This document shows, one piece after another, positions 23,883-56,418 of a DNA stretch of 64,000 nt. The DNA is from an uncultured Anaerolineales bacterium. Its GTDB lineage: Bacteria > Chloroflexota > Anaerolineae > Anaerolineales > UBA11858. Below the pieces are notes generated by a model, which made no database searches, had not been told where the DNA came from, and saw nothing but the letters and a program-made list of their open reading frames with translations. The stretch spans positions 26,517 through 90,516 of the forward strand of contig CAZVPR010000001.1 of NCBI GenBank assembly GCA_964629085.1, read 5' to 3'. A program made the translations under genes and the position numbers. Within the stretch, counting starts at the first letter, position 1. Every line of letters starts with the position of its first letter.

Positions 23883-23885
23883 GGG

Positions 23886-25618: not shown

Positions 25619-25623
25619 TGATG

Positions 25624-25677: not shown

Positions 25678-25690
25678 AAATAACCAATAC

Positions 25691-26377: not shown

Positions 26378-27349
26378 CTACTCTGTCTTGTTCTCATAAT
26401 CGATTGGAGTAATCTCGCGCGGGGCAGGCGTTTTATCTGACAAAATACTTGGAGGGTAATAGAATGCCCGATGAAGTTGCGCATCGATATTCCCCGAATA
26501 ACGGTATCCTTGGTGCGTTCCCCAATACTGCAAAAAGCGAAACCAAAAAATGCTCACCCAATGGGCTCCGAGGCTCCTCTCTCGGCGAGCTTGTAATAAA
26601 TCTGAAAATGTACTCCCTAGCCACAACCCCAAAAAATTCCTAAATGTGAATTTGCTTTCAGGAAGGATTTGCTTCATAGCTATCGCTTCACGTCGATAAC
26701 GATTATAAACCTGGGCAGGTTTTTCATCATGCAAATGCACAATTTCAGCTTCAGCCACGTACGCAATCAAATACCCTTCTTGTTGCACCCAACTACTCCA
26801 GGTTAAATCTTCCAATCCGGTCAGAGATTCATTGTAGGGATTCGCTTCCCACAATGAACGCCGAATAGCGGCGTTGGCGTTATGAGCATAAGCGTGCGCT
26901 TGCCTGGGCTGTGAACTATCCGGAAAGTACTTGCGGAAAAACTGGTGTTCAGAATACTGATTGGTTTGGCCCCCACGCTGCTTTCCATAAGTAACGGCAA
27001 CTTCAGTATTACTGAAAGGTGCCAGCATTTGTTCCAACCAATCGGGATAAACCGGGTAACAATGCGCACTGATAATAACAATATATTCACCCGATGTTGC
27101 CTCAATACCCCGGTTCAAGGAACGCCCAAAGGTAAATTCCTGTGGACTGATGTTGACGATTTTTACAGGATAACCGCCTGCAATGGCTACAGTTTCATCC
27201 GTAGAACCTGAGTCAACCAGGATAGTTTCCACATCCTTTAACGTTTGCTGCGAAATGCCCTTCAGCAACCGGCCTATGTGGCCGGCTTCGTTATAGGCGC
27301 GAATGACCACCGAACAAAGTGGTCGATTACCAATCTGTGGATTGCTCAT
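26378..27349 (-). CDS. GT2-family glycosyltransferase
   Basis: 323 aa. CSVVIRAYNEAGHIGRLLKGISQQTLKDVETILVDSGSTDET. Confidence 0.8.
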   Translation of the reverse strand: MSNPQIGNRPLCSVVIRAYNEAGHIGRLLKGISQQTLKDVETILVDSGSTDETVAIAGGYPVKIVNISPQEFTFGRSLNRGIEATSGEYIVIISAHCYPVYPDWLEQMLAPFSNTEVAVTYGKQRGGQTNQYSEHQFFRKYFPDSSQPRQAHAYAHNANAAIRRSLWEANPYNESLTGLEDLTWSSWVQQEGYLIAYVAEAEIVHLHDEKPAQVYNRYRREAIAMKQILPESKFTFRNFLGLWLGSTFSDLLQARRERSLGAHWVSIFWFRFLQYWGTHQGYRYSGNIDAQLHRAFYYPPSILSDKTPAPREITPIDYENKTE

Positions 27350-28178
27350 ATCCTAATTGCACTAACAAACCTCCAGCAACCTCTTTGAACAAATATTTAT
27401 GCTCCTCTGTGAACGATTCTCGCCATTTGCCGACTTTGCCACTTCGGAATGTTGGGGAACGTGCTGGATCAATAGCAGATTTCAAAATATTTATTGTTTC
27501 TGGTTCATTTTTCTCAACTGGGAAGCCGCGCCCTCGGGCGTGATTCAGGACCTTTAGGAGAGTCTTGTCTTGATCGGTGATGAAATCTTCAAATTTCAAA
27601 ACCAAAACTTCGGAGCGTTCGAGCCAACCCAAATAAGGTTCAAAGCGTTCACGAATGTTCGGAAATTCGATTTCTAGTTCAGGTCTTCCCAAAATACTGG
27701 CGCGTAAGCGTACATCAAAATTATGCAATTCCATCTTATAAAATTGATGATGAACATGATTGGGCTCCATCTCAGTAACATAGTGGACGTGAGAAACAAC
27801 TACATCACGCGGATCGCGAAAGATAAAAAATGGAACCACACTATCCTGCGTAAGCAGGGATACAACCCCTGGCAGGGCATGCAAATGACCATAGGCGATA
27901 TCCCCCGGCCGTAAACGCCGAAGGTCACTCAAAATTTGATTTTGTGGGCGCAGTTCGCCCGTAGGGCCATCGAAGGTAAGCACAGCCGGGAGGCCACCGT
28001 CCACCGCAGGCCCTATTTTGGTCAGCCCTTGCAACACCTGAGTGAGCAAATGTGTGCCACTCTTTGGGAAAGAATTAGCGAAGAAGACAGGAACGCCTGA
28101 AAGAGAACCATTTCGGGCCAATACTTTTAGGCGACGCATTCGCCAACGGGCTAACTTGAGCAGATTTCGAATTCTCAT
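27327..28178 (-). CDS. PAPS-dependent sulfotransferase
   Basis: 283 aa. 5'-PSB-type loop FPKSGTHLL and 3'-PB-type FRDPRDVVVSHVHY. Confidence 0.8.
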   Translation of the reverse strand: MRIRNLLKLARWRMRRLKVLARNGSLSGVPVFFANSFPKSGTHLLTQVLQGLTKIGPAVDGGLPAVLTFDGPTGELRPQNQILSDLRRLRPGDIAYGHLHALPGVVSLLTQDSVVPFFIFRDPRDVVVSHVHYVTEMEPNHVHHQFYKMELHNFDVRLRASILGRPELEIEFPNIRERFEPYLGWLERSEVLVLKFEDFITDQDKTLLKVLNHARGRGFPVEKNEPETINILKSAIDPARSPTFRSGKVGKWRESFTEEHKYLFKEVAGGLLVQLGYEQSTDW

Positions 28179-29791
28179 TCCATCTCCGGCAATAGGAATG
28201 GTTTCTGTTGGGTTATCCCTTCGAAAATCACCTTCATTGATGGAGATTTCTCAATGGATAATTCCCGCCACGAAAAGGGCTCGATCTGAACATATCCTGG
28301 TGTTGGGTGAGTTTTGATGAATTTTCCAAAAGGCAAAGATACCCGAAAGAGTTGATAATACAAAAAGCGCCGGGCATTGACTTTATATTCGTCGGGCACA
28401 TTCAGTTTATTCGTAATCAAAAATTCCTCGGCCTTATTCTGATATGCCTGAGGCGATTGCGGAAAATGGACAATCGGATATTGCGTGAAACGCGCTTTTC
28501 CTCCACACAATACAGGCGTATCCAATAGTGTCGCCTCCAACCCAATGGAAGAGTTATACACCATAACAAACTTCGCCCGCCGGATCAGGTCATAAGAACT
28601 GACGTGGTCTTGCGAGTCAAAAAAGATTACATTCGGCAGCTTATCTGCCCCTTTGCTTGCCAACCAATCGCTGACACTTTCACGGGTCTGCTTACGAGTA
28701 CCAGGACGCTTTTCATCCGGATGAGCACGGATCACAAATAGAGTCTGCGGATGCGATTTGATGATTTCCAACACTAGATCCAACCAGGCGAACATTTGGG
28801 GAAATATCGTATTGGCATGGACCTGACTGGTATCAAAAACTACATTGGTAAACACCGGCACGATCTGGTTGAATTTTGCAGCATGATCTAAAAAATCATC
28901 ATCCAATCCATTCATTTCTGGCCAAAAGCGTATCCCAGCCATGGTGAAATCGCCTTTGAATCGCTTACTCAGGTAATCGTCCAGGCGGTGGTTTTGGGTC
29001 TCAGTTAGCTCAAAATCAGTTGGGATTTCAATGGGATAGGCTGTGGCATCCCCATCCGTGAAAAAGGCGGAAAACTGTTGAAAACTCACTTCTTGGGTGA
29101 TCGTACGAATGCCATGCTTGCGTGCTGCCCAGCGCGCCGTCGCCTCAGGGAATTGCAAACCGTTGAAAAGCACAACAGTTTGCGGTTTTAATTCCCGCAA
29201 AAATTTATCAAATTCAACTGCAATATTATAGGCTGACAAGATATATGCCTGAAGTTGATGGCGATTGGCCTTGTTGTCAACCAGGTGATGTTGTCGCAAA
29301 GCCCAGCGCAGCGAAGGCAGCACCAGTTTTCCAAGTGGAATAGTCTGAGAATCAAAAGTGAATTGGAAATTGGACAGTTCAGCCAGGGAAAGGTTTGCGA
29401 TTTCTTCCGACAAAGTTTGATTCTGTTGATAATCAAACCAGTGAACATCCGAGTGAGCGGTTAGTTTTTTGGATTGGGAAATACAAATTTGACAGGGCGG
29501 ATCAGCCAGGTAGTCATCTGGATTGGTACCCAAAACACAACGGCTCATACCCGCGCGGCAAACAAAATGAACAACCGGTACACCCTCGAGCTGGAGCCCC
29601 CAAGATGTTAGCTGAGTAAAAGCTGCATTTAAACTCAAGCCGCCCAAGCGGGACGAAGCATTAAAAAAGACTGCCGGGCTATATTGCAAATCCCGCTTTG
29701 AATTTTTTTGAATTCTGCGAGAAAGATTTGCAACCCGCCAATCCGCTTTCAATCGCAGCAAAAGCAGATGTAATCGCTGATTTATATTCAC
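28175..29791 (-). CDS. GT-B enzyme with HP motif, Capsule_synth (KpsC/KpsS)-like / CMP- or CDP-donor transferase candidate
   Basis: 538 aa. LFVIRAHPDEKRPG...FVMVYNSSIGLEATLLDTPVLCGGKARF fits the pattern HP...nS.iGlEA...g.PV...G. Confidence 0.5.
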   Translation of the reverse strand: MNINQRLHLLLLRLKADWRVANLSRRIQKNSKRDLQYSPAVFFNASSRLGGLSLNAAFTQLTSWGLQLEGVPVVHFVCRAGMSRCVLGTNPDDYLADPPCQICISQSKKLTAHSDVHWFDYQQNQTLSEEIANLSLAELSNFQFTFDSQTIPLGKLVLPSLRWALRQHHLVDNKANRHQLQAYILSAYNIAVEFDKFLRELKPQTVVLFNGLQFPEATARWAARKHGIRTITQEVSFQQFSAFFTDGDATAYPIEIPTDFELTETQNHRLDDYLSKRFKGDFTMAGIRFWPEMNGLDDDFLDHAAKFNQIVPVFTNVVFDTSQVHANTIFPQMFAWLDLVLEIIKSHPQTLFVIRAHPDEKRPGTRKQTRESVSDWLASKGADKLPNVIFFDSQDHVSSYDLIRRAKFVMVYNSSIGLEATLLDTPVLCGGKARFTQYPIVHFPQSPQAYQNKAEEFLITNKLNVPDEYKVNARRFLYYQLFRVSLPFGKFIKTHPTPGYVQIEPFSWRELSIEKSPSMKVIFEGITQQKPFLLPEME

Positions 29792-29847
29792 AAAGATTGT
29801 ATATTTTTTATTGAATTGATCGCGCTATTTTTGAATGCAGAATTTAT

Positions 29848-31734
29848 CTACTCAGAAATAGCTTCGAGATAGGCATCTGAAAGACGATTGATAGCAATAA
29901 TGAAACCTTCGCCCCCTCGTTGGTGCCCGCGCCAGATTTCGGGAATCATTGTGCCGTGATATTCCTTGACAATCTTGAAGAAACGCACCCAGTCGATATT
30001 TCCCTGACCAATTTGCAACCCTTCCCCATCCAAGCCAGCCGCATCGGAGAGATGCAAATGCGATATGTAGGGCAAAATGACTTTAACTTGTTCATAAAAA
30101 TCGACTTGTGCCCAATTGCAATAAAGCTTATGATGCGAAGTGTCGTAGCAAGTTTTCAATCCCATTGAATCAAGGAATTCTTTAATTTCATACGTATCCA
30201 TGAAGGCATTCGTCAACCACTGACCGCCAAAGTACCACGGATGAGGGGGTAAGTTCTCGATGAGTAATTCAATGTCATCGCTGTCAAGCGCTTCAACGGA
30301 GCGACCAAGATTATCATATAGACCCTTACGATCCTCAATTGGCTGATCCAGACTGGCGGCACCTGGGTGAACGACTACTTTTGGAGTCCCTGAGAAATGA
30401 GGAGCCATATCTCGGGTTACGTTTATGGCGCGCTGCAAGATATCCACAGACGCTTGGCGGTGATCATCATCAAATGTGCATAAATCGACCAAATGGTTAG
30501 TCCAAAACTCGGGGGCATGCACCACTAACTGTACATCCAAATCATCACCGGGATAAGGTTCATCCAGGTCCTTATCTGTGAAGTGGAATTCCAACAAGGG
30601 AGGTTCATATTTCAGCATTTCGCGAAAATCGTTGAAGCGAACAACCAGGCCCCACTTCATGGGCAGCGTATGTTCCACATCTAATGTTGTGCGCTGTCCC
30701 AAATCTACGGGTAGAAATGGATCATCCGCTTCAATGACGCGAGAAGCTATCCGTCCAACTAATTCTGTATACCGCTGGGGGGATAAACCTTGCCCAGGTC
30801 CTTTGACAGTGATCACTTCACGGGTAATTTCTTCTCCCGGCTGGATCTGATGTGTGGCTACCAAGCTTTTTGCCAGTACTTCACGGTTAAGGATTTCTCC
30901 CATCGTAAAAAATTTCTCATCGCCAGTTCCCAGCGCCAAAGTAACTTGTCGGATATCACGGACCATTTTTCTAAATCCATGCGGCTCTAAACTTGAAGCA
31001 TGGTCTGGACCATCCATAGTGCGATCGAGCGTGATATGCCGTTCAATGACGCTAGCTCCTAAAGCTGCCGCCACAGTCGATACCGAAATACCCCGTTCAT
31101 GGCCTGAGTAACCAACAGGCACTCCAAATTCCCGCAGGCGTTCCATAAATCTTAAATTGATATCTGCAAAGGCGGCCGGATAAGCACTGTTGCAATGTAA
31201 CAATGCAAATTCTGCTTTTTTCTCCTTTAGGAAATTCACCGTTGTCTCAACTTCTTCCATGCGAGACATTCCTGTAGAAACAATCAGAGGTTTCTCCTTG
31301 CCAATCAAATAATCAATCAGAGGCAAGTTGATCATATCCGCTGAGGCAACTTTGTAGGCAGGAACCCCCAAGGATTCAACAAAATCGGCGCTGTCATCAT
31401 CGAAAGCCGAACACATGAAAGTTATGCCTTTTTTCTGACAATATTCGACGATTTTGAAATAGTCATCATTAGAGAGTTCGACTCTTTGCAAAATGGGGAG
31501 CAGGTAATTGAGATTCTTCTCGCCAACATTGGCGTTATCCAAATATTTCTTTGGATATAACTTTTCCAAATTTCGTTTCTGGAATTTGACCGCATCTGCG
31601 CCAGCATCCACCGAAGCATCGATCAGTTCAAAGGCATATTCGAGAATACCATTATGATTTACCCCAATCTCGGCAATAATATAGGGCGAATGCCCGTCGC
31701 CTACGTGTCGATCACCAATTTTAATTTCTGGCAT
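29848..31734 (-). CDS. NeuB-family ulosonic acid synthase + SAF domain fused to a xylose-isomerase-like (AP_endonuc_2) TIM-barrel domain
   Basis: 628 aa. NeuB motifs: YIIAEIGVNHNG, AVKFQK, KVASADMINLPLIDY, VSTGMS, GYSGHERG. SAF region: LVATHQIQPGEEITREVITVKGPGQGL. C-terminal ~280 aa: ...VVHPGAASL...IENLPPHPW...ISHLHLSDAAGLDGEGLQIGQGNIDW. Confidence 0.8.
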   Translation of the reverse strand: MPEIKIGDRHVGDGHSPYIIAEIGVNHNGILEYAFELIDASVDAGADAVKFQKRNLEKLYPKKYLDNANVGEKNLNYLLPILQRVELSNDDYFKIVEYCQKKGITFMCSAFDDDSADFVESLGVPAYKVASADMINLPLIDYLIGKEKPLIVSTGMSRMEEVETTVNFLKEKKAEFALLHCNSAYPAAFADINLRFMERLREFGVPVGYSGHERGISVSTVAAALGASVIERHITLDRTMDGPDHASSLEPHGFRKMVRDIRQVTLALGTGDEKFFTMGEILNREVLAKSLVATHQIQPGEEITREVITVKGPGQGLSPQRYTELVGRIASRVIEADDPFLPVDLGQRTTLDVEHTLPMKWGLVVRFNDFREMLKYEPPLLEFHFTDKDLDEPYPGDDLDVQLVVHAPEFWTNHLVDLCTFDDDHRQASVDILQRAINVTRDMAPHFSGTPKVVVHPGAASLDQPIEDRKGLYDNLGRSVEALDSDDIELLIENLPPHPWYFGGQWLTNAFMDTYEIKEFLDSMGLKTCYDTSHHKLYCNWAQVDFYEQVKVILPYISHLHLSDAAGLDGEGLQIGQGNIDWVRFFKIVKEYHGTMIPEIWRGHQRGGEGFIIAINRLSDAYLEAISE

Positions 31735-31802
31735 AGTTTTTCTCCGAAATCAATAACCATGAAAACTGCAAACACATTCTCACTGTGCTTTGTGCATTCG
31801 TT

Positions 31803-32549
31803 TCATGTAAACTGGAATCCCAGATCATCTACGGTGATTTCCCCACTTTCCAGCAACCGTTCTGCCCTTCTCCAATCATCAGGTGAATCAATGTCAATCC
31901 ATTCGCTGGGATCAATCACCAATGGAAGAATGTGATCACCCGTCATAGAATTTTTTCGCAAAATCGTTTCTGTCCAGGCGGCGTCAACATAACCAGTTTG
32001 CCAATAGATTTCTGGTAAAACTTGGCGAGGCTGGTTGTAGGCTTCTCCAGGGACGCCAAGTTCGTTGCCAATGGGGTTCAAAAACCCATCAACTCCAATG
32101 CGCCACATTTTGAATGGATTCTGGAAAGGAACACAAACGGTACGCACGGCATCAGCATCGGGGCGCTCAACCAGCCGTAATACCGCCTGATCAATATGCC
32201 AAACACGTCGAAAGGGTGAGGTCGGCCGCAACTGAACTACAATATCGGGGACATAGTCTTCATTATCCGCCAACCATTCCAGGGCATGCCCAAACACGGG
32301 CAGGTCTGGCGTCGAATCTTCAGCGTGTTCTGTTGGCCGAATAAAGGGGGTTTCAGCCCCAAAGCGACGCGATGTTTCTGCAATCTCTTCGTCGTCCGTG
32401 GAGACAATCACTCGCGAAACTGTCTCTGCAGTAAGGCCAGCAATGATACTGTAAGCAATCAATGGATAGCCAGCGAAATCTAAGATATTCTTTCTGGGGA
32501 TGGTTTTCGATCCACCACGCGCGGGTATCAAAGCAAGAACTTCAGTCAT
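31803..32549 (-). CDS. CTP_transf_3 cytidylyltransferase (CMP-ulosonic acid synthetase, NeuA-like)
   Basis: 248 aa. VLALIPARGGSKTIPRKNILDFAGYPLIAYSI. Confidence 0.8.
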   Translation of the reverse strand: MTEVLALIPARGGSKTIPRKNILDFAGYPLIAYSIIAGLTAETVSRVIVSTDDEEIAETSRRFGAETPFIRPTEHAEDSTPDLPVFGHALEWLADNEDYVPDIVVQLRPTSPFRRVWHIDQAVLRLVERPDADAVRTVCVPFQNPFKMWRIGVDGFLNPIGNELGVPGEAYNQPRQVLPEIYWQTGYVDAAWTETILRKNSMTGDHILPLVIDPSEWIDIDSPDDWRRAERLLESGEITVDDLGFQFT

Positions 32550-32579
32550 CAGTTTTTATCCGGGGATGAAAGATCAACG

Positions 32580-33407
32580 TCACCAGGTTGTCCAACCTCC
32601 ATCTATCACCAAATTTGCACCAGTCATATATTTTGAGGCATCCGAAGCCAAAAAAAGCAATGCTCCATTCATTTCATCTTTTTCAGCCATACGGCCAAAT
32701 ACAGATCGTGCTGAATAAGCTTGAACGAATTCATCATCATGATCGTTAAACACACCCCCTGGTGTGATCGCGTTTACGCGAATTTGCGCATCTCTATCAG
32801 CATAATAGGCTGCCAAATATTTGGTCATTCCTAGAACCCCAGCTTTGGTCACAGTGTAATAGACCGGCTTATAATGAGCTGGTTGGCCTTCACGTTGATA
32901 CAATCTTTGATCCGGTGCGGTTAGCCCGTAAATCGACGATATGTTGATAATCACACCATGTTTCTGAGCTAGCATTGGTTTTACGGCTGCTTGAGAACAC
33001 AAAAAAACGCCTGTCAGGTTGACATCCACAGCTTGCTGCCAAAGTTCCAAGGGGTAATCTTCAAATGCGCCAGAATGTACAGTATCGGAAGTAGGATCGA
33101 ACTTCGGATCAAGGGCCGCGCTGTTCACAAGGATGTCAAGGCGGCCAAATCTCTCCAGGGTTGAGTCCACCATATCTTGAACAGAATCCCCCCTGGTCAC
33201 ATCTGTCTTTATGCCTAAAGATGAATATCCACTATGGGACAGAGAAGCTGCCAAATCTTTGGCAGCTTCTTCATCGATATCAGCAATTACAATGGAGGCA
33301 CCTGCACGTGCGAGAGTCCAGCAAAACTCTTCACCCAATAACCCTATCCCACCAGTGACAACGGCCACTCGGTCGGAAAGGTTAAAAAGCTCTGATAATT
33401 CCGACAT
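32580..33407 (-). CDS. Short-chain dehydrogenase/reductase
   Basis: 275 aa. VAVVTGGIGLLGEEF and the catalytic YTVTKAG. Confidence 0.8.
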   Translation of the reverse strand: MSELSELFNLSDRVAVVTGGIGLLGEEFCWTLARAGASIVIADIDEEAAKDLAASLSHSGYSSLGIKTDVTRGDSVQDMVDSTLERFGRLDILVNSAALDPKFDPTSDTVHSGAFEDYPLELWQQAVDVNLTGVFLCSQAAVKPMLAQKHGVIINISSIYGLTAPDQRLYQREGQPAHYKPVYYTVTKAGVLGMTKYLAAYYADRDAQIRVNAITPGGVFNDHDDEFVQAYSARSVFGRMAEKDEMNGALLFLASDASKYMTGANLVIDGGWTTW

Positions 33408-33417
33408 TTATCGGCCT

Positions 33418-35136
<1,719 letters not shown>

Positions 35137-35243
35137 CTAACGCAACTCCTGCATACATATTTAGCAAATCAATATCAATTTGATTTGACTTATTTTCTAC
35201 TTTGAAGACCCAAACAACATTATCTTGGGACATCACTGACATG

Positions 35244-35266
35244 AAAAAAGCCGACCAGCAGCCGGC
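35244..35266 (-). terminator. Candidate intrinsic terminator after the usp/TauE operon
   Basis: Minus strand: gccggc-tgctg-gtcggc (6-bp stem including one G.U pair) followed by tttttt. It lies about 85 nt downstream of the usp stop. Confidence 0.45.
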
Positions 35267-35349
35267 GACCTGGAATCATAACATGAAATTGATAATTATG
35301 CCGTTATTTTCGGTCACACTGATCACAATTATCCTGTAGCAATAATAGA

Positions 35350-36174
35350 TCAGACCAGTGTTTTTTCTCCCACAACCAAAATTGGAATAGTAACCTGAGT
35401 CAAAATTTGCTGCATGATGTCACCCAAGAAGAATTCTTTCAACCCTTTGGTAACCCTCGATCGTCCAATCACCAGCATGTCATAATCTCCAAGATTCACT
35501 TCCCGAACTATCTCATCGATTGGAATTCCACGACGTAATTCCAATTCACCTTCAACGTTGTTCATTTCTAGGATTTCTGCCCCTTTCCGCAAATGTTGAG
35601 CAATTGGAGTTTCCGTTTTCAGAAGTTCTTCAAGCGTTTCCTCGATTTCATGTAAACCAGTATACATGGAAGGCACGGCACCCGAAGCAACATGCAAAAG
35701 GGTAACTTTAGCACTATTAGCATTCGCTAAATTGGCACTCGTCGTAATCACTTCATTTTTTTTATATCCCCCACTCGAGCAAACCAGGATGTGTTCCAAC
35801 TTCGGAACACCATTGCGGATAACCAGGACTGATGGAAAAATGGACTGGGAAACAATCTTATCAATGGGCACTAGCCGAGGGATGCCCCTTGCTTTAGGGC
35901 CAACTTGCAAAATGACCAGATCATATTTCCCCTGATTGGCCTCTGAGAGCAGAACTCCGGCCGGGTCACCCCAACGCAGCAACAATTCTACATCCACGCC
36001 ATCGGCCATTTCTTGAGCTTTCTCGAAAATCTTTTGTCCAACTTCCTGATCCTCACCCCGGGTCAGAACATGCAATAAGGTGATTTCCGCTCCCATTGAC
36101 TTTGATAACAGCGCGGCAATTCTCACAGCTGACTGCTTTTTCCGCTTTTTGCCAAGATAAACCAAAACTTTCAT
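35350..36174 (-). CDS. Tandem universal stress protein (2 x Usp domain)
   Basis: 274 aa with two Usp-like halves (ITLLHVL...DLVILQVG...VLVIR and VTLLHVA...DMLVIGRS...ILVVG). Confidence 0.75.
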   Translation of the reverse strand: MKVLVYLGKKRKKQSAVRIAALLSKSMGAEITLLHVLTRGEDQEVGQKIFEKAQEMADGVDVELLLRWGDPAGVLLSEANQGKYDLVILQVGPKARGIPRLVPIDKIVSQSIFPSVLVIRNGVPKLEHILVCSSGGYKKNEVITTSANLANANSAKVTLLHVASGAVPSMYTGLHEIEETLEELLKTETPIAQHLRKGAEILEMNNVEGELELRRGIPIDEIVREVNLGDYDMLVIGRSRVTKGLKEFFLGDIMQQILTQVTIPILVVGEKTLV

Positions 36175-36194
36175 TTAGAACCATCCATTTTCAA

Positions 36195-37100
36195 TCAATG
36201 TATGCCTGCAACCCCCAATAAACGAAGGATGACCATCAACGCGCCGAAAACAGGCAAGGCAGAAAAAAACAATCGTATCCTGGGGCCAGCAAAGAAACGG
36301 GTCAGAGAAGCACCGATTTGAGCGCCCATAGCCGCACCGGTCTGCATTACAAGAGCCATCATCACATCTACATTCCCCTTTATTGCGTGGGTAATAGTTC
36401 CATATCCTGCAGAAAATACAATTTCAAACAAATCCGTACCAACGGCAACATGAGTTGGAATCCCCATGAAATACACTAATAATGGCATGCGAATAAAACC
36501 ACCCCCAACACCAAGAAACCCAGCCAAAAAGCCAGTCACCAATCCTACACCCAAGACCACCCATAAAGAGATCGAAGAAACTCCTGAAACAGGCAATTCA
36601 ATCATTGGAGGAATCCGAATGGCATGAACACGTCGAGCAAGTCCTTGAAATCCAACGGCATCATGGACATCAACCCGATCGGTGCGGATCATCTGCATGG
36701 CACGCATACTCTCCCAGGCGGTAAATCCACTGATCAACAGGAGAATAACTATATATGTAATGCCAATGATCAAGTTAACAGTACCCGCAGTTTCTAAAGC
36801 CTCAATAATACGAGCACCAATCTCAACACCCACAACTGTGCCCAGGATCATCAGAACTCCCAATTTGACATCCACATGCCCAAGGGCTCGATGCCGCCTG
36901 GCAGCCACCATCGACTTTCCCGTCATATGTGCCAGGTCTGTCCCGACCACAAAATTCATGGGGACACCCAGCCAAAACATCATTGGAGCCGCTAGAAATC
37001 CTCCCCCCACGCCAAAAAAGCCCCCCAAGATCCCTACTATAAATCCGATCCCTGCCAAGAGAAATGGATTTACGACGACGCCAGAAATTGGAAATTCCAT
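36195..37100 (-). CDS. TauE/SafE (TSUP) family anion permease
   Basis: 301 aa. Duplicated GGGF-type motifs (GILGGFFGVGGGFLAAPMM, and later GFLGVGGGFIRMPLL) with 8 or more TMs. Confidence 0.8.
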   Translation of the reverse strand: MEFPISGVVVNPFLLAGIGFIVGILGGFFGVGGGFLAAPMMFWLGVPMNFVVGTDLAHMTGKSMVAARRHRALGHVDVKLGVLMILGTVVGVEIGARIIEALETAGTVNLIIGITYIVILLLISGFTAWESMRAMQMIRTDRVDVHDAVGFQGLARRVHAIRIPPMIELPVSGVSSISLWVVLGVGLVTGFLAGFLGVGGGFIRMPLLVYFMGIPTHVAVGTDLFEIVFSAGYGTITHAIKGNVDVMMALVMQTGAAMGAQIGASLTRFFAGPRIRLFFSALPVFGALMVILRLLGVAGIH

Positions 37101-37111
37101 AAAGCTACTTT

Positions 37112-37360
37112 TCAGTCGAAACGGTCCAAACGCAAATTATTCAATAGAAATGAGGTCACCAAATCTAAGAAGATCCCCTGCACGACAATCAACCCTAAAC
37201 ACAAAAAAGCATAGAGAATAATATTGTCATGGTACAGGGAATTTAGCCAATTTCCAAGGAAACGTAATACGGCAAAGAAATACGCAATGACAACGAATGC
37301 ATAAAGAGCTAGCTCGATGAGATAATTGCGAAAATGGTTTAGGGTATTATCATCGGACAT
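37112..37360 (-). CDS. Hypothetical small membrane protein (2-3 TM)
   Basis: 82 aa. Hydrophobic segments LALYAFVVIAYFFAVL and ILYAFLCLGLIVVQGIFL. It is tightly spaced upstream of the TauE gene. Confidence 0.45.
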   Translation of the reverse strand: MSDDNTLNHFRNYLIELALYAFVVIAYFFAVLRFLGNWLNSLYHDNIILYAFLCLGLIVVQGIFLDLVTSFLLNNLRLDRFD

Positions 37361-37366
37361 TTTAAA

Positions 37367-38341
37367 TCACCAGCCCGTTACCAAAATATCTCCCAACAAT
37401 GCGTTATTGACAAAGATGACCGCGTGTTGCACATCGGGGAATTGAATTTCTATCGTCTCCCAAATTTGCGCACGCATGCGCAGCGCATGGCATTTGTCAT
37501 TCGGTCTGGGAACTTCACCTCTCAGCCAAATGTATATTTCTCTTTCCCAAGCAGTTGCTTCCACATCTTCAACGCGCAGCGAGGTCGCATAAGCCGGGTT
37601 AAACAAGCCATTATAATACTGGTGCTTATTGGCAAAAAGCGCTGTCAAAGCAGTAGTGATATCGGCAACCATATCCCCAGTACGTGGTTTACCAAAATAA
37701 AGATAAAGCAAACCATCACCGCATCCAAATGGGCCGCCGCTATTTTCGGCCACCAGGAAATAATAAAGTCCTTCCCCAGCCGGCAAGGAGGGCGATCCAG
37801 CCGCAGGAGTTGGAGGAGGTTCGGTTATTGGTAAACTTGCTACGTTTCCAGCAAGGGAAACGATATCATCAACAATCCAACAAGGCTCACCTTTGCCCTC
37901 GTACGTTATGACCCACCAAACTGGTTCGGTCTCGCTTTTGCCAATTACATTCGGCGAATCTCCGGCTGACTGATACCCAACGATGGGATAATCCATTCCA
38001 GGACCAGATCGGCAGACCGCGTCCCGATCGACTACTAACAAGGGAGGTTCTTCAGTTGGCGTGTTTGAAGGAATCTCTGTGGGAGTAAAGGTCGCAGTTG
38101 GTGTTTCTGTAGGGACTTCCGTAAAAGTATGCGTTGCGGTTGGTGTATCTGTAGGGGGAATTGGTGTCTCCGTCGGAATATCAGGGATGTTCGTCTCCGT
38201 GGGAACTTCCGTAGGTCCAGGCAAGTTGTTTGGTTGAGCCTGCTCATCTGTTGGCTCTGGCGTCGCAAATAAACTACATCCCGTTAGCAGCGCCAGCAAC
38301 AGTATACTTACAATCAAACGGATAAAAGTTTTGTTGTGCAT
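37367..38341 (-). CDS. Secreted lipoprotein with Thr/Pro-rich repeat linker, SH3b-like and GerMN-like regions
   Basis: The track ORF starts at 38380. I prefer ATG 38341 (MHNKTFIRLIVSILLLALLTGCSL), which has an AGGA RBS and an LLTGC lipobox. The repeat region is TETNIPDIPTETPIPPTDTPTATHTFTEVPTETPTATFTPTEIPSNTPTEEPP. The SH3b-like segment is CRSGPGMDYPIVGY...VWWVI. Confidence 0.65.
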   Translation of the reverse strand: MHNKTFIRLIVSILLLALLTGCSLFATPEPTDEQAQPNNLPGPTEVPTETNIPDIPTETPIPPTDTPTATHTFTEVPTETPTATFTPTEIPSNTPTEEPPLLVVDRDAVCRSGPGMDYPIVGYQSAGDSPNVIGKSETEPVWWVITYEGKGEPCWIVDDIVSLAGNVASLPITEPPPTPAAGSPSLPAGEGLYYFLVAENSGGPFGCGDGLLYLYFGKPRTGDMVADITTALTALFANKHQYYNGLFNPAYATSLRVEDVEATAWEREIYIWLRGEVPRPNDKCHALRMRAQIWETIEIQFPDVQHAVIFVNNALLGDILVTGW

Positions 38342-38417
38342 TGTTTCCTTTGTTGAAAAAGGGGCCATGAAGTAAAACAAGACTATTTACAGAACCACAA
38401 TTTTATTATGCATGCGC

Positions 38418-38423
38418 TATAAT
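38418..38423 (+). promoter_or_regulatory. Candidate -10 box (TATAAT) for the lone plus-strand membrane gene
   Basis: Exact TATAAT 34 nt upstream of ATG 38457. An AAGGTGA RBS lies about 8 nt upstream of the start. The -35 is weak. Confidence 0.25.
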
Positions 38424-38456
38424 GATGGATATTCAATCCAAAGGTGATTTTGTTGT

Positions 38457-40049
38457 ATGAATAATATCAAAAAGAACTGGTTTTTTCTATTGCTGTTGGT
38501 TATTTTTGCAGTTTATACAGGGGTCTATATTTTCCAGACCAGCTTCATTTCAAACAATGTGCGCTATTTCGTGCTTTTCGACGATGCTATGATATCCATG
38601 CGCTATGCCAAGAATCTTGCCGAAGGCCATGGTCTGGTTTGGAACCCGGGCGAGACTCCGGTGGAGGGCTATACCAACCCACTTTGGGTGATCTTCATGG
38701 CGCTCTTCCACTTATTCCCAATTGCATCAACGAAAATCAGCCTGGCCATCCAAATCAGTGGCGCGATTTTTCTGCTCGCAAATTTGATTTTCGTAAAACG
38801 GATCGCAGAATTCATAAGCGACAAACCGATAGTGCCAATCCTGGCCGTAATTCTTGCTGCGTTCTACACCCCATTAAACAACTGGGGGCTGCAGGGCATG
38901 GAAGTCAGCCTTTTGGTGCTGCTGCTCAGTGCAGCGGTCTTCAAGCTGCTCAACGATACAAAAAATGACAAATTTTCCCCATGGCCTTATATAGTTCTCG
39001 GCCTGAGCACGCTGGTACGCATCGATATGGCCGTGCCCTATTTGGTGGTTCTAGGATTTGCAATTCTCTTCATCACTAAATATCGTCGGCAACATATCCT
39101 GTGGGGAATTGGCACGCTTGTCTTTTTCCTGGCGATACAAACCATCTGCCGTTTATGGTATTACGGGGAACCCGTTCCTAACACGTATTACTTGAAGATC
39201 GGCGGCATCTCCATTTTCCAACGCATCAAACGCGGTATTCTCGTTTTGTATCAATTCCTGTGGGATATGAATTGGGTGTTGTTCCTGCTGCCCTTCATTT
39301 TCGTGTTGCTGAAAAGAGAACGCCAAAGCATTCTTTTGGCCCTGCTCATAGCTGGGCAAATTGCCTACAGTGTCTATGTTGGGGGTGATGCCTGGGAGCA
39401 CAAAGGCGGTGCCAACCGATATATGGCCGTAGCCATCCCCCATTTCTTCATTCTCTTTTCTTGGGCTATTAGCCTGGTGGTTCAGGCTGTTTCGCAGATT
39501 GCTGAGAAAGTCAAAACTCCCTTGCCGGGCAAGGTGCTTTCAAATCTAACCCTGATCGCAATCGCGTTGATCAGTCTGGCAAATTTCAACTTTATCCAAC
39601 AAGATTTCAAATATTTGCAACGCTGGCTGCTCATTCGGCCGCCCCTTTTCATTGAAGGCAACAAAGAAGCTGTGGCCATTGCACAAGCCGTCGAGAAAAT
39701 CACTACACCCCAGGCCCAGATTGCTGTCGTCACCGCTGGCGCAATCCCATACTTTTCCGAACGTCCCGCTCTGGATCTACTGGGGAAAAATGACGCTTAC
39801 ATTGCCAGTCTCCCCAGTCATCCTCCTGCCTCACTGGAAGACCTCCGCCCAGGGCACATGAAGTGGGATTATGATTATTCAATTGGAGAACTAAAACCGG
39901 ATATGATCTTGCAATTGTGGGGTGATCAAGAAATCGCGTACGAATATATCGAGCAGGTTTATACTGTTGTGGAAGTTGATGGTATGCTGTTCTCAGCTCG
40001 CAGTGATTCGCAAGATATTTTGTGGGAACGCGTCGATTCAACCCCGTGA
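38457..40049 (+). CDS. Polytopic membrane protein, GT-C-like glycosyltransferase candidate
   Basis: 530 aa. First loop YFVLFDDAMISMRYAKNLAEGHGLVWNPGETPVEGYTNPLW contains a DD motif. It has more than 10 TMs and a soluble tail of about 100 aa. It is the only large plus-strand gene in the window. Confidence 0.5.
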   Translation: MNNIKKNWFFLLLLVIFAVYTGVYIFQTSFISNNVRYFVLFDDAMISMRYAKNLAEGHGLVWNPGETPVEGYTNPLWVIFMALFHLFPIASTKISLAIQISGAIFLLANLIFVKRIAEFISDKPIVPILAVILAAFYTPLNNWGLQGMEVSLLVLLLSAAVFKLLNDTKNDKFSPWPYIVLGLSTLVRIDMAVPYLVVLGFAILFITKYRRQHILWGIGTLVFFLAIQTICRLWYYGEPVPNTYYLKIGGISIFQRIKRGILVLYQFLWDMNWVLFLLPFIFVLLKRERQSILLALLIAGQIAYSVYVGGDAWEHKGGANRYMAVAIPHFFILFSWAISLVVQAVSQIAEKVKTPLPGKVLSNLTLIAIALISLANFNFIQQDFKYLQRWLLIRPPLFIEGNKEAVAIAQAVEKITTPQAQIAVVTAGAIPYFSERPALDLLGKNDAYIASLPSHPPASLEDLRPGHMKWDYDYSIGELKPDMILQLWGDQEIAYEYIEQVYTVVEVDGMLFSARSDSQDILWERVDSTP

Positions 40050-41048
40050 GTTGATTCTGTTTCCCCAGGTTATCATTGTTCCCAAACGTGCAGATTCATG
40101 CGCAGCTGCGGCCAATTCCTGCGCCCAAATTCCATCGTCCAGGGTACAGTGCGGCTGATCATCCCCGCGTGTCACAGCCAAAAAGTGCCGCATTTGATCC
40201 ATAAACAAATGGTTGCGCTCGAAATCTTCTGAGAGCGGGTATGATTCCCAAGATTCGCCTGCCGCTCGATAAGTTTTCAACTCACCTTCAAGATAATCCC
40301 AATAGATTGTGCCCTCGGTGCCCACGATCTCCATTCGGTTGGTATGCGGTCGCTGGATATAATCCAGATGCACCGAACCTAAAACCCCATTGGCAAAACG
40401 CAACCCAATCTCCGCAACGGATTCAACCTCGATTTCGAGTTCTGACACCTGCACTGAGAAAGCCCAAAGAGCAGTAACATCCCCAAAGAGCCACCGTAAA
40501 TAATCAAGTGGATGCGTCAGGGTCAGGATCACCCCTCCCCCAAGATCCGCCCGGGCACTGAATCCCTGGCGATAATCTTCCCAGGGATGCCACCCCGGTA
40601 AATATTCACCCCAATGTACGCGTACGGACACCGGTCGGCCAATGGTCTTATCCGCAAGAATTTTAGAAATTTGGAGAAGCTGTGGGTGATACCGAAACTG
40701 GAATCCCACTAAAACCTGGCCACCGCCCCTTTTCACTGCATCCTGCAATTCACCCAGACGCTCTAGAGAATGCGAAATAGGCTTCTCCAAAAACAGATCA
40801 CAGCCAGCTTCAGCCGCCGGGATAGCCACATCCAAATGCATTGAGGTGGGGTTCGACACAATAACTGCACCCGGGTTATGCGCTAGCGCAGATTGAATAT
40901 CGGTCTCGACTGGATATTCGGCGATCTCATCATCGGGCAGAGTGCTGAGTTTGCTGCGCAGGAAAACAAAATCACCCTCGCCAAGTGCAGTTAGATTTCT
41001 AAAATGTCTTCGGCCAATTGAGCCAAAACCAGCGATAAGGGTTTTCAT
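40038..41048 (-). CDS. Gfo/Idh/MocA family NAD(P)-dependent sugar oxidoreductase
   Basis: 336 aa. The N-terminus MKTLIAGFGSIGRRHFRNL forms a Rossmann fold, and EKP is present (FLEKPISHS). Its 3' end overlaps the convergent 38457..40049 gene by 12 nt. Confidence 0.8.
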   Translation of the reverse strand: MKTLIAGFGSIGRRHFRNLTALGEGDFVFLRSKLSTLPDDEIAEYPVETDIQSALAHNPGAVIVSNPTSMHLDVAIPAAEAGCDLFLEKPISHSLERLGELQDAVKRGGGQVLVGFQFRYHPQLLQISKILADKTIGRPVSVRVHWGEYLPGWHPWEDYRQGFSARADLGGGVILTLTHPLDYLRWLFGDVTALWAFSVQVSELEIEVESVAEIGLRFANGVLGSVHLDYIQRPHTNRMEIVGTEGTIYWDYLEGELKTYRAAGESWESYPLSEDFERNHLFMDQMRHFLAVTRGDDQPHCTLDDGIWAQELAAAAHESARLGTMITWGNRINSRG

Positions 41049-41053
41049 AGGAA

Positions 41054-41117
41054 AGGTAACAGGAAAACATTGTAAACAGGGCTACAGGATTGCTATTTGT
41101 TACTCCTGTTTACCTGT
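41054..41117. repeat. Hairpin element (ACAGG/TAAACAGG-word type)
   Basis: gtaaacagg (41072-41080) pairs perfectly with cctgtttac (41105-41113). Additional words are aggtaacagg (41054-41063) and acagga (41084-41089). The 13-mer cctgtttacctgt (41105-41117) recurs as a reverse complement at 60763-60775. Confidence 0.7.
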
Positions 41118-42161
41118 CTACCAATCGTTGTTCTTTTCATACCCCCATTTGACCAACATCTCCCCAGCAAATTCTTTGAACACTGCCCGGTCTCTCGCAG
41201 TAAATAATTCTCGCCAAGAACCCGATTTGCCTTTTTTGAGCGGCTCCACCAGTTCACCAGCTTTTTGCTGTTGCCACTTGGCATCGGGGTTGCTGCCCAA
41301 TTCTTCGGTCAACAAATTTTGCAATTCCGGCAGTGAAACATCGGCGCCGAGTAAAGACCACAAGCGCTGCATTTCATTCCAGGGTATTTTGAGCAGATCT
41401 TCGTATCGCACGGAGGCGTATTGCCCTTCCCCATAGAGGCGCTGACCTTCCTGATCGGTCTCGGTGATATTGCGCACCCAACTCTCGGCGGCATGCCGGA
41501 TGCCCTTCTGCGTAAAGATGGATCGTTCGCCAGTCATGAAAGGCTCAGGATTGCTCTCAAATTCAGCGCGAATTGCCCAATCCTGTTTGGTGAGGTGCGC
41601 CTGGGCATCAATGAAAGCCTGAAAACGATGAGAGATAGCTGCATCACGGCCATCACGAATTATGAAGATCAATTTCCCGTCGGGAAATACCTTGTGCATG
41701 CGGCGGACAGCTTCACCATTCAATAAGGCATTGGGACTTTTATCGCCCACACACCTGGCACCCTCCTGTCGGGCTTCTCGTTCCATCACATACTCCACCG
41801 CAGCCCGTAACATCACCGGGGAAAGATCACGACCGCGATTCCAGCGGTTGCTGCGGCGAGCGAGCCATAATTCGATATCCTTGCGATCAACAAAAGCCTC
41901 AAGCGTTGGCTTGCGGGTAAAGAAGTGTCCCTGATAATTGCAATGCACGTCAGGGTGCAATCGAATCAGCCGAGTTAACAAGGTTGTCCCCGAACGCGCA
42001 TGCCCAAATACAAAGAATTTGTCCAGAGGAAAGAATTCCTTGAATTCCGCAACCTCTTCAGGGGTGATTGCCGGAACTTCCCGTAACATCGCAGACGAGA
42101 GTCGTCCTGTGAGTAATACCTGAGCAGTCAATTTCAAGCGATGGGCTATTTTAATAATCAT
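41118..42161 (-). CDS. PAPS-dependent sulfotransferase (second)
   Basis: 347 aa. FGHARSGTTLLTRLI (5'-PSB) and FIIRDGRDAAISHRF (3'-PB). Confidence 0.8.
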   Translation of the reverse strand: MIIKIAHRLKLTAQVLLTGRLSSAMLREVPAITPEEVAEFKEFFPLDKFFVFGHARSGTTLLTRLIRLHPDVHCNYQGHFFTRKPTLEAFVDRKDIELWLARRSNRWNRGRDLSPVMLRAAVEYVMEREARQEGARCVGDKSPNALLNGEAVRRMHKVFPDGKLIFIIRDGRDAAISHRFQAFIDAQAHLTKQDWAIRAEFESNPEPFMTGERSIFTQKGIRHAAESWVRNITETDQEGQRLYGEGQYASVRYEDLLKIPWNEMQRLWSLLGADVSLPELQNLLTEELGSNPDAKWQQQKAGELVEPLKKGKSGSWRELFTARDRAVFKEFAGEMLVKWGYEKNNDW

Positions 42162-42166: not shown

Positions 42167-43597
42167 TTAATTCATCAGAGAAAGTAAGAATTCAGCCGTC
42201 TTCTCCCCTGCATTTCCATCGGTGAAAGTACATTCGCGCGCTATAAAATCTTTCCGGGTCTGCTGATCCGCCGATGGGTTGGTGAGATAGCGGTTTATAG
42301 CCTCCTGCAATTCGGCTTGATTCTGCGCTTCTCGCCCGGCTTTCGATTCCAAATACCGCAAATGAGTTGGCCAACCGCTGATCTTGCTGAGCGGCAAAGT
42401 ATATTTGCCCGGCCAGCCCTCAGGAGAATCGATACACAGGCTTATCACCGGAGTGCCATGAATGGAGGCTTCCACAACCATGGTCGAATAAACCGTTACC
42501 ATCACATCAGAGTAATCCATCATGGATGATTTTTCTGGCATATCTTCCCCCGAATAATAACTCATGCCGCCTTCACCGAGGGGCACAGGTTCAACAACGT
42601 GCACGTTGGGCAGGTTGGCAGCCAATGCGCGAATTTTCTCGCGTTCACCGGCGAAACGGGGCGTATCCATAAAATGCGTGGGATGCAATCGGATGAGCAA
42701 TTGGCAAGGTTCGGCCAATTGGTCCGAAGAAATTAATACTGCCAGGGCCTCGACATTTTGATAATTTGGTGAAAAGGACACGAAACTGCTGGCGTATGAT
42801 ATCAATTTACGACTTGGATCAAGGCCGTGAAGTTGAAAGTACTCTTCCCGCGGCATCAGCCATTTTCTGGAAAAATAGCGATCATAGGCTGGAACACCGC
42901 CGATATTCACCCGTTCAGGAGGCCAATCTGCCCCCTGAGTAAGTTCTTCCTTTTGGATTTCCGACCAGCATGAAACCCAATCCACGGATGCGCCGGGCAA
43001 GCTGTAACTGCTGGAATTGTCCCAACCTACGATTACAGCTGCAGTTTTCACTCCCCGGTCTTTGGCCTCACGTAGCAGGAAACGATCAAGGCGCCATCCT
43101 GGAGTGCTGGCTACTACCAATTCGGGCTGATATTTTTCAAATAAGTCCGCATACAATTTCGGATTGAAGCGATCTTGATACAGTACCAATTTCTGACGAG
43201 CAGGCTTATTATTGCGCAAAAAAGCGACGACCAACTTCATCAGTGGGAATAACATCTTGCGCTTGTTGTGGGCTTCATCCCGCACCTGATTGATAAAACC
43301 GTCAACAGCCTGCAAATTGATGCGATTCGATGCCCCAGCCCGGCGCAAGAAATGCAGCCAGAATTGCAGCGAGGGGCTTTCGTTTCTTTCATATTTTTTT
43401 GCCCGCTCAGTGCGCAGGCCCTCGACAATTAAACCAGGACGTCCAAACCGTTTTTCGAGCTGAGGTTTAAGTGAATCGTCTGTCAGCAGGATTACTTCCA
43501 ACCCTGCATCTAAAAGCGAAGAAACTATGTCACTTTGTAAAAAATAAACAGTCGCCAGGCCGTGGTCGGCACAGACGAATATCCGCTTTGATGCCAT
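42167..43597 (-). CDS. GT-B enzyme with HP motif (TagF / Capsule_synth-like transferase candidate)
   Basis: 476 aa. LLIRLHPTHFMD...VMVTVYSTMVVEASIHGTPVISL. The N-terminal half is Rossmann-like (RIFVCADHGLATVYFLQSDIVSSLLDAGLEVILL). Confidence 0.45.
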   Translation of the reverse strand: MASKRIFVCADHGLATVYFLQSDIVSSLLDAGLEVILLTDDSLKPQLEKRFGRPGLIVEGLRTERAKKYERNESPSLQFWLHFLRRAGASNRINLQAVDGFINQVRDEAHNKRKMLFPLMKLVVAFLRNNKPARQKLVLYQDRFNPKLYADLFEKYQPELVVASTPGWRLDRFLLREAKDRGVKTAAVIVGWDNSSSYSLPGASVDWVSCWSEIQKEELTQGADWPPERVNIGGVPAYDRYFSRKWLMPREEYFQLHGLDPSRKLISYASSFVSFSPNYQNVEALAVLISSDQLAEPCQLLIRLHPTHFMDTPRFAGEREKIRALAANLPNVHVVEPVPLGEGGMSYYSGEDMPEKSSMMDYSDVMVTVYSTMVVEASIHGTPVISLCIDSPEGWPGKYTLPLSKISGWPTHLRYLESKAGREAQNQAELQEAINRYLTNPSADQQTRKDFIARECTFTDGNAGEKTAEFLLSLMN

Positions 43598-56408: not shown

Positions 56409-56418
56409 TCACATTGTT

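Follow-up and report, generated by a model that had tools for sequence, protein, structure and literature searches.

In rhizobia, genes that provide PAPS (3'-phosphoadenosine 5'-phosphosulfate), from which sulfate groups are donated, are linked to carbohydrate sulfotransferases within glycoconjugate loci. Described examples are NodP/NodQ with NodH, LpsS and Mesorhizobium loti KpsS, which belong to loci for Nod factor, lipopolysaccharide (LPS) and K-antigen, respectively. A likewise organized locus was analyzed here in a 64,000-nucleotide stretch of DNA from an uncultured Anaerolineales bacterium. This stretch, called the window from now on, served as the reference locus, and the module under study occupies its positions 27327-42161. 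It encodes a fused PAPS synthase (Sat/CysC), two sulfotransferases (ST-A and ST-B) and proteins related to nonulosonic acid (sialic-acid-like sugar) biosynthesis. The module is likely an operon conserved among Anaerolineales that supplies its own sulfate donor and builds a sulfated cell-surface glycan with nonulosonic acid.

The comparison with described systems revealed both common and distinct features. NodPQ is a GTPase-coupled sulfurylase of the CysD/CysN type, whereas in the present enzyme a homomeric Sat is joined to CysC. The rhizobial genes serve chitooligosaccharide or LPS modification, whereas the present context is a nonulosonic acid operon in the phylum Chloroflexota. NodH resembles ST-B in being a Sulfotransfer_3 protein with an RXG-type 5'-phosphosulfate-binding (5'-PSB) motif. 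None of the NCBIfam nodulation models matched the window proteins except for a 30-residue P-loop match to NoeE. The domain order of Sat/CysC is identical to that of the Aquifex aeolicus SAT/APS kinase (2GKS, NF004040); the two differ in genomic role, as the gene studied here appears to head a surface-glycan operon. The nonulosonic acid genes resemble the loci of Tannerella forsythia and Campylobacter, with a NeuB-family synthase, a PseF-like cytidylyltransferase, a PtmA-like short-chain dehydrogenase/reductase (SDR), BFO_1060-family transferases with an HP motif and an MptE-like protein. However, the descriptions of those loci consulted here mention no PAPS synthase or sulfotransferase, and NeuB carries an extra TIM barrel in the present case. 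The Synechocystis xss (synechan) cluster likewise contains sulfotransferases inside a bacterial polysaccharide locus; neither a dedicated PAPS synthase nor nonulosonic acid genes are known from that cluster. Full-text literature searches revealed no account of a bacterial nonulosonic acid cluster that also encodes a PAPS synthase and sulfotransferases, either in general or for Chloroflexota or Anaerolineae. The locus most likely follows the logic of NodPQ/NodH, newly coupled to nonulosonic acid biosynthesis, and leads to a sulfated acidic surface glycan undescribed for Chloroflexota. Only six bacterial genera have been reported to make sulfated polysaccharides, and a review discusses just NodH, KpsS and Stf0 as bacterial sulfotransferases (PMC11625862).

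The PAPS synthase and its conserved gene cluster

The initial annotation of the window had listed a Sat/CysC fusion, two sulfotransferases and a TauE permease accompanied by a tandem Usp protein. An open reading frame (ORF) and motif check recovered all of the named ORFs and motifs at their coordinates. Profile scores exceeded the curated thresholds, so that the Sat/CysC, sulfotransferase, TauE and Usp matches are not chance motifs; these observations were all borne out. Almost all genes of the 64 kb lie on the minus strand and have glycan-related functions. The genes from sat/cysC downstream are the following:

33418..35136, minus strand: bifunctional PAPS synthase Sat/CysC, 572 amino acids, identified by Pfam, NCBIfam and PDB matches; apparent first gene of the operon
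32580..33407, minus strand: PtmA-like SDR oxidoreductase (Pfam adh_short_C2, E 3e-50); syntenic in relatives
31803..32549, minus strand: cytidylyltransferase resembling CMP-nonulosonate/ulosonate synthetases (Pfam CTP_transf_3, E 1e-18)
29848..31734, minus strand: NeuB-type synthase with SAF domain and C-terminal xylose-isomerase-like TIM barrel (Pfam NeuB, E 9e-85; SAF; AP_endonuc_2, E 9e-29)
28175..29791, minus strand: HP-motif GT-B-like transferase, similar to Capsule_synth/BFO_1060 (Pfam Capsule_synth, E 6e-8; NCBIfam BFO_1060, E 2e-10)
27327..28178, minus strand: ST-A, core PAPS-type sulfotransferase, 283 amino acids (Pfam Sulfotransfer_1, AlphaFold2 model, Foldseek)
26378..27349, minus strand: glycosyltransferase of family GT2 (Pfam Glycos_transf_2, E 2e-24); syntenic in relatives
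23058..26362, minus strand: second cytidylyltransferase, 2-hydroxyacid dehydrogenase, SDR and MptE-like (Maf-core-like) protein, assigned by Pfam; conserved downstream block

Pfam revealed three consecutive domains in Sat/CysC, namely PUA_2 (residues 10-165, E 3e-47), ATP-sulfurylase (174-390, E 2e-82) and APS_kinase (398-548, E 9e-64). The protein scored 851.2 bits against the NCBIfam equivalog NF004040 (bifunctional sulfate adenylyltransferase/adenylylsulfate kinase; cut-off 669), and its top PDB match was the Aquifex aeolicus enzyme 2GKS over nearly the full length (E 1e-232). Members of this family are marked by the motifs QTRNPxHRxH and GRDHAG in the sulfurylase and GLSGxGKST, DGD and ISP in the kinase part. 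Both sulfurylase motifs are present in the translation, and the kinase motifs are intact (Walker A P-loop GLSGCGKST, LDGD, ISPY and KGLY...FTGIDDPYE). This strong homology predicts that Sat/CysC makes adenosine 5'-phosphosulfate (APS) and then PAPS.

In order to describe the conservation of the locus, one genome per GTDB species was scanned with Sat/CysC as seed, which led to approximately 25 species-level comparisons, and all window proteins were compared with the loci of these relatives (numbered L001 and onwards) by tblastn. The closest Sat/CysC relatives shared 71-90% identity and came nearly all from uncultured Anaerolineales/Anaerolineae metagenome-assembled genomes (MAGs), apparently sampled in the marine water column and in further aquatic and subsurface habitats. 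The identical protein was found with unchanged gene order on marine metagenome contigs, whose sample names point to low-oxygen water columns; the bacterium of the window is assigned to this marine low-oxygen zone, and window proteins were seen on contigs of up to 201 kb. Approximately 20 Anaerolineales species share the core order sat/cysC - SDR - CMP-sugar synthetase - NeuB/TIM fusion - Capsule_synth-like HP-motif transferase - ST-A - GT2. Synteny continues after GT2 with the second cytidylyltransferase, the 2-hydroxyacid dehydrogenase, the SDR and the MptE-like gene (23058..26362; L007-L014, L018, L020, L022, L033, L040, L041).

Synteny was counted in the 19 relatives with a Sat/CysC of at least 70% identity and at least 5 kb of downstream flank. 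The CMP-sugar synthetase was present in 18, the NeuB/TIM fusion in 16 (with an unfused NeuB in two more) and an ST-A-type gene in 16 of them. In 18 of the 19 the PAPS synthase was physically linked to sulfotransferase and glycan genes, and this linkage was kept through rearrangement. L028 and L029 show the order ST-B - ST-A - sat/cysC - CMP-synthetase - NeuB/TIM, and ST-A also lies immediately upstream of sat/cysC in L025 and L027. Thus, the sulfotransferases stay with the PAPS synthase even where the gene order changes. The NeuB/TIM fusion (71-89% identity in relatives) is conserved to the same degree as Sat/CysC. From sat/cysC through GT2 the genes are separated by gaps of 10, 30, 68 and 56 bp, followed by overlaps of 4 and 23 bp, which is an operon-like spacing.

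More distant clusters of the same type, with ST-A homologs, were found on two Chloroflexota-type contigs of 3.05 Mb (L040) and 1.15 Mb (L041). Each contains three sulfotransferases (L040, 532-20190; L041, 1-19633); across the relatives the number per cluster is one to three. The L040 and L041 clusters also hold a PP-binding carrier protein, a tRNA-synt_2b-like ligase, acetyltransferases and DUF4910/DUF2172 proteins, and a penicillin-binding protein is encoded within that of L041. The carrier protein, ligase and acetyltransferases suggest an aminoacyl or acyl decoration besides sulfation.

Among window ORFs of at least 150 amino acids no cysteine, sulfite or PAPS-reductase genes (cysH, sir, cysK, cysE) were found. 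Rfam models, applied to the complete window with their gathering thresholds, gave no match; consequently, neither an S-box nor any other riboswitch precedes sat/cysC. The initial annotation had opposed a dedicated sulfation module to a cysteine regulon. The missing cys genes and riboswitch, together with the glycan linkage in 18 of 19 relatives, do not favour the regulon, and sat/cysC appears to head a nonulosonic acid operon instead. A tRNA scan of the window found none, and hence no obvious integration site.

The SDR gene starts 10 bp downstream of the sat/cysC stop codon; its product matched the NCBIfam models PRK09186 and FlagModPtmA below their cut-offs. For the cytidylyltransferase the closest NCBIfam model was PseF with 148 bits (cut-off 206). 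The NeuB/TIM protein reached 349 bits against NeuB_NnaB (cut-off 400) and 252 bits against PseI (cut-off 340). Its NeuB part is closest to N-acetylneuraminic acid (Neu5Ac) synthases, with Neisseria meningitidis NeuB as PDB match (E 2e-54). Judged from these profiles, the protein belongs to the NeuB family at the Pfam level and falls outside the specific Neu5Ac, pseudaminic acid (Pse) and legionaminic acid (Leg) pathway models. Its TIM barrel (29848-30687, minus strand) remains fused in 16 relatives. The only clear PDB match of this barrel was the uncharacterised MJ1311 (E 3e-8), D-tagatose 3-epimerases reached only E ~0.06, and NCBIfam gave only a weak match to the CbiR phosphodiesterase. A phosphatase or an epimerase is possible.

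Two GT-B-like proteins carry an R-x-HP motif, namely 28175..29791 (VIRAHPDEK) and a protein next to ST-B, 42167..43597 (LIRLHPTHF). Both matched BFO_1060 partially. BFO_1060 is the Tannerella forsythia ortholog of Tanf_01245, a transferase for Pse/Leg acid derivatives, and has the HP motif. Since both transferases are BFO_1060-like with R-x-HP, the locus holds two pairs of an HP-motif transferase followed by a sulfotransferase. PDB sequence searches with the two proteins found nothing significant (KpsC, E 0.78; RNA polymerase, E 0.32), and the GT-B-like assignments therefore rest on the partial Pfam and NCBIfam matches and the HP motif. BLASTP between them gave E 0.34, which does not show paralogy. 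From its sequence, 28175..29791 is a candidate nonulosonic or ulosonic acid transferase.

The two sulfotransferases

ST-A contains the motifs SFPKSGTHLL and FRDPRDVVVSH and matched Pfam Sulfotransfer_1 with 40.8 bits (E 2e-10; cut-off 22). An AlphaFold2 model based on 40 homologs had a pLDDT of 92 and a pTM of 0.89. Among the top 50 Foldseek matches of this model in the PDB all were cytosolic sulfotransferases (SULTs) except retinol dehydratase, which belongs to the same fold family. The best matches were SULTs bound to PAPS or 3'-phosphoadenosine 5'-phosphate (E down to 8e-9, TM ~0.54). A HMMER alignment to human SULT1A3 gave the following residue correspondences:

ST-A K39 (PKSGT; P38-K39-S40-G41-T42) and SULT1A3 K48: catalytic lysine in the 5'-PSB loop
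ST-A H98 and SULT1A3 H108: catalytic base
ST-A R121 and S129, SULT1A3 R130 and S138: 3'-phosphate-binding (3'-PB) motif
ST-A R245-x-G247-x-x-G250-x-W252 and SULT1A3 RKGxxGDW (R257, G259): C-terminal motif

These PAPS-binding and catalytic residues are invariant in 40 close homologs. In representatives of 30-55% identity they are invariant or conserved to at least 90% except for H98 and T42 of PKSGT: R121 and S129 are invariant, conservation of R245, G247, G250 and W252 is complete or no lower than 90%, and H98 is the majority residue in less than 90%. The PAPS binding proposed for ST-A in the initial annotation thus agrees with a confident SULT fold in which the PAPS-binding and catalytic residues equivalent to those of SULT1A3 are kept. 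As modelled, ST-A is a PAPS-dependent sulfotransferase of the cytosolic SULT type. The subfamily is sizeable: at E <= 1e-30 it includes 139 representative clusters, and at E <= 1e-10 the number rises to 1,453. Where a homolog comes with an organism name, which is seldom the case, the label is Chloroflexota. The gene overlaps the HP-motif transferase 28175..29791 by 4 bp and GT2 by 23 bp; because of the 4 bp overlap, ST-A is probably translationally coupled to the HP-motif transferase. ST-A is a core gene of the module.

ST-B and its immediate neighbours are the following:

41118..42161, minus strand: ST-B, accessory Sulfotransfer_3-type sulfotransferase, 347 amino acids, assigned by Pfam, with an RSGTT 5'-PSB motif
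42167..43597, minus strand: second HP-motif GT-B-like transferase (NCBIfam BFO_1060, E 4e-15; weak Pfam Glyphos_transf)
40038..41048, minus strand: GFO/IDH/MocA sugar oxidoreductase adjoining ST-B, assigned by Pfam

ST-B carries the motifs GHARSGTTLL and IIRDGRDAAISH and matched Pfam Sulfotransfer_3 (E 3e-23) and Sulfotransfer_1 (E 1e-13). Residues R56-S57-G58-T59-T60, R169 and S177 are invariant in 40 homologs, and the 5'-PSB and 3'-PB motifs align with PRSGTT and RDGRAS of the tyrosylprotein sulfotransferase (TPST) TPST2. TPSTs were also the best PDB sequence matches (E ~1e-6), with similarity confined to the PAPS-binding N-terminal half. Foldseek with the ST-B model, which is of moderate quality, found 3RNL and TPSTs at the top, with TM only 0.34-0.45. 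All fold matches listed were sulfotransferases or close sulfotransferase relatives, the CurM sulfotransferase domain being among the distant ones. PAPS binding by ST-B, likewise proposed at the outset, is consistent with the retained 5'-PSB and 3'-PB motifs and with significant fold matches that were, as far as listed, sulfotransferases only. The invariant Q77 of ST-B aligns with E99 of TPST2, the catalytic glutamate (base) of that enzyme. A TPST/RaxST-like identity of ST-B was rejected due to this replacement.

Six of the ten relatives with enough upstream flank contain ST-B. It is missing in L007, L009, L023 and L033; its neighbour genes remain in L007, L009 and L033, and the second HP-motif transferase, which ends 5 bp upstream of the ST-B start, is kept in relatives without ST-B. 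ST-B is an accessory gene. The adjoining oxidoreductase matched the NCBIfam models for inositol 2-dehydrogenase and UDP-GlcNAc 3-dehydrogenase, both below cut-off.

Neither sulfotransferase has a signal peptide and both start with a predicted helix, which is amphipathic in ST-A; hence, both probably act on the cytoplasmic side. Their C-terminal tails (ST-A, 27327-27446; ST-B, 41118-41237) share 50% identity over 40 residues with the pattern KGKxGxWRExFT...GYExxxDW. Outside this tail the two proteins cannot be aligned, and the final GYE..W is also conserved in distant ST-A relatives. The common tail may be an interaction or membrane-docking element.

The TauE-type permease and other genes of the island

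Four features were identified directly upstream of sat/cysC:

36195..37100, minus strand: TauE/TSUP permease (Pfam PF01925, E 2e-43; 149 bits, cut-off 32.6)
35350..36174, minus strand: tandem Usp protein (Pfam Usp in two stretches, E 2e-26)
35250..35266, minus strand: terminator-like hairpin plus T6 in the gap from Usp to sat/cysC (consensus match)
35247-35219, minus strand: promoter-like site downstream of the hairpin and before sat/cysC (consensus match)

TauE-family sulfate import has been demonstrated for CysZ of Corynebacterium glutamicum and TK06_RS10770 of Pseudomonas fluorescens. The window TauE has the Pfam family and the adjacency to sulfate-activation genes in common with these, a likeness at the family level; the family also includes sulfite and sulfoacetate exporters. 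By precedent and by its adjacency to sat/cysC, a role as sulfate importer is plausible. The TauE/Usp pair, with TauE upstream of sat/cysC, was found in this species and five relatives only (L014-L017, L021). It is a lineage-specific add-on, probably with its own transcription unit, which would end at the hairpin. In L023, an Anaerolineaceae MAG, sat/cysC lies between aconitase/SecA and amylase genes (9995-12596), directly followed by a different TauE paralog. This TauE shares 26% identity with the window TauE and was rejected as its ortholog; L023 is an independent sat/cysC-TauE pairing.

Several further genes surround the module. An ORF of 82 amino acids with hydrophobic, transmembrane-like stretches lies just upstream of TauE (37112-37360, minus strand) and is called as a gene in the identical contigs L001-L003. 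The next protein (37367-38380, minus strand; 337 amino acids) has a lipoprotein-type signal (LLALLTGC) and a long Pro/Thr-rich linker with PTETP-type repeats. Its C-terminal domain had no Pfam or NCBIfam match. Homologs of 38-61% identity are located upstream of sat/cysC in L009-L013, L015 and L018. This may be a surface protein that carries O-glycans; it might even accept the glycan. The sole plus-strand gene of the block (38457-40049) encodes a polytopic membrane protein of 530 amino acids; its inverted orientation is kept in relatives (64-71% identity). This protein, probably a GT-C-type enzyme, weakly matched the NCBIfam putative glycosyltransferase family LA_3751/LA_3752.

A second nonulosonic acid gene set is present at 50790-57501 on the minus strand. 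It comprises an unfused NeuB (56419-57501), a KdsB-like cytidylyltransferase (50790-51704), which is the third cytidylyltransferase of the window, a DUF4910/DUF2172/M28-like protein, an AAC(3)-like N-acetyltransferase and methyltransferases. The island may thus make two or three different ulosonic sugars. Near the MptE-like gene (23058-23882) three PMT_2/ArnT-like GT-C membrane glycosyltransferases are encoded on the minus strand (11796-13907, 18741-20261 and 21253-23037), a hint at glycosylation of proteins or wall polymers outside the membrane by a portion of the island. Besides these GT-C/PMT_2 enzymes and the methyltransferases, the rest of the window contains an ABC-2 exporter and a Wzy_C protein.

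Proposed pathway, alternative explanations and significance

The dedicated glycan-sulfation module put forward in the initial annotation is supported and was refined to a nonulosonic acid operon of Anaerolineales with ST-A as core and ST-B as accessory enzyme. According to the proposed pathway, sulfate likely enters the cell in this lineage through the TauE-family permease, encoded together with the tandem Usp as a probably separate unit just upstream. Sat would convert sulfate and ATP to APS, and the fused CysC would convert APS to PAPS. Homology and conserved linkage suggest that NeuB/TIM, the PtmA-like SDR and the cytidylyltransferase provide a CMP-activated sialic-acid-like sugar, which the HP-motif GT-B enzyme would transfer to the growing glycan at the cytoplasmic face of the membrane. 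ST-A would then use PAPS to form a sulfate ester on the nonulosonic sugar or a neighbouring residue, and ST-B, encoded beside the second HP-motif transferase, would add a second, optional sulfate in this lineage. More speculatively, the glycan may leave the cell via the ABC-2 transporter, Wzy_C and GT-C enzymes of the island. An LPS O-antigen was not adopted as product since Chloroflexota are generally regarded as lacking LPS.

Several observations weigh against this proposal. The NCBIfam equivalog cut-offs for Neu5Ac and Pse enzymes are reached by neither NeuB nor the CMP-synthetase, so that the sugar can be described only as sialic-acid-like. We infer the acceptor, the sulfate chemistry and the identity of the nonulosonic acid. 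The AlphaFold2 model of ST-B is moderate (pLDDT 71), with low confidence for residues 74-146. TauE/Usp is missing from most relatives and is therefore not needed for the module. Terminator and promoter consensus counts in the region are no higher than in shuffled sequence; consequently, only the intergenic hairpin with T6 was kept, as a hint. Finally, the sat/cysC genes of L023 (78% identical), L031 and L036 lie outside any glycan cluster, and Sat/CysC may also feed sulfur assimilation, the window being only part of the genome.

The last two points lead to an alternative in which Sat/CysC is a general assimilatory enzyme that stands beside the glycan genes by inherited order, while the sulfotransferases use the general PAPS pool. 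A sulfated glycan may still be real under this explanation, which overlaps with a dedicated operon as Sat/CysC could serve both uses. The exceptional gene positions just mentioned, with only TauE attached in L023, agree with it, and so does the finding that Sat/CysC (71-90%) is more conserved than most of its neighbours. The NeuB/TIM fusion, however, is equally conserved, and the linkage of sat/cysC to sulfotransferases and NeuB survives rearrangement (L025-L029). Furthermore, sat/cysC begins after the terminator-like site, 10 bp upstream of the SDR gene, in a window where the search described above revealed neither assimilatory cys genes nor a riboswitch. We regard a purely assimilatory enzyme as unlikely.

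The sulfate could also end up elsewhere. That one or both sulfotransferases modify something other than a glycan, for instance a small metabolite, a lipid or the tyrosine of a protein, would fit the TPSTs as best PDB sequence matches of ST-B (E ~1e-6), the small-molecule SULTs as folds nearest to ST-A and the Pro/Thr-rich lipoprotein gene nearby (37367-38380). It is nevertheless quite improbable: the TPST similarity is limited to the PAPS-binding N-terminal half, with Q77 at the E99 position, Sulfotransfer_3 also includes carbohydrate sulfotransferases such as NodH, and both sulfotransferase genes adjoin glycosyltransferase-like genes in a pairing kept in most relatives. Still further from what we expect, and hardly credible, is a sulfate that acts as a transient leaving group in sugar biosynthesis (CurM-type chemistry) and is absent from the final glycan. 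ST-A does lie amid sugar biosynthesis genes, the TIM domain and two SDRs have no assigned steps, and the CurM sulfotransferase domain was found among the distant fold matches of ST-B. Nothing specific favours this chemistry, however; the partners of ST-A are a transferase and GT2 rather than a decarboxylase or thioesterase-type gene, and one to three sulfotransferases per cluster fit decoration better than an obligatory pathway step.

A more specific form of the glycan-sulfation proposal is that ST-A sulfates the nonulosonic residue itself, so that Anaerolineales, including soil, groundwater and marine sediment relatives, display O-sulfated sialic-acid analogues. This is a tentative idea, which we hold to be somewhat doubtful. 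In that case ST-A would be a functional analogue of the vertebrate sialate O-sulfotransferases WSCD1 and WSCD2 (PMC9304399), a likeness by proposed function. The sulfated sialic acids of vertebrates and echinoderms would then have a prokaryotic counterpart, made via a vertically inherited operon of the whole order that supplies PAPS itself.

Among bacteria, sulfated glycans are rare and little understood; the arrangement described here is conserved across a Chloroflexota order that is abundant and for the most part uncultured. In granular sludges the extracellular polymeric substances (EPS) were reported to be sialylated and sulfated; reference sulfotransferases gave few matches there, and the relevant enzymes, according to that study, may be unknown (PMC10483923). 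The cluster provides candidate genes for anionic (sulfated, sialylated) surface or EPS polymers, which have been observed by chemical means in anaerobic communities; if ST-A sulfates the nonulosonic residue itself, it would do so for the EPS of granular sludge as well (PMC10483923). ST-A and ST-B represent two new, well-populated sulfotransferase subfamilies for biochemistry. For the Anaerolineales themselves a strongly acidic cell surface is predicted, which bears on aggregation, metal binding and interactions with phages or grazers.

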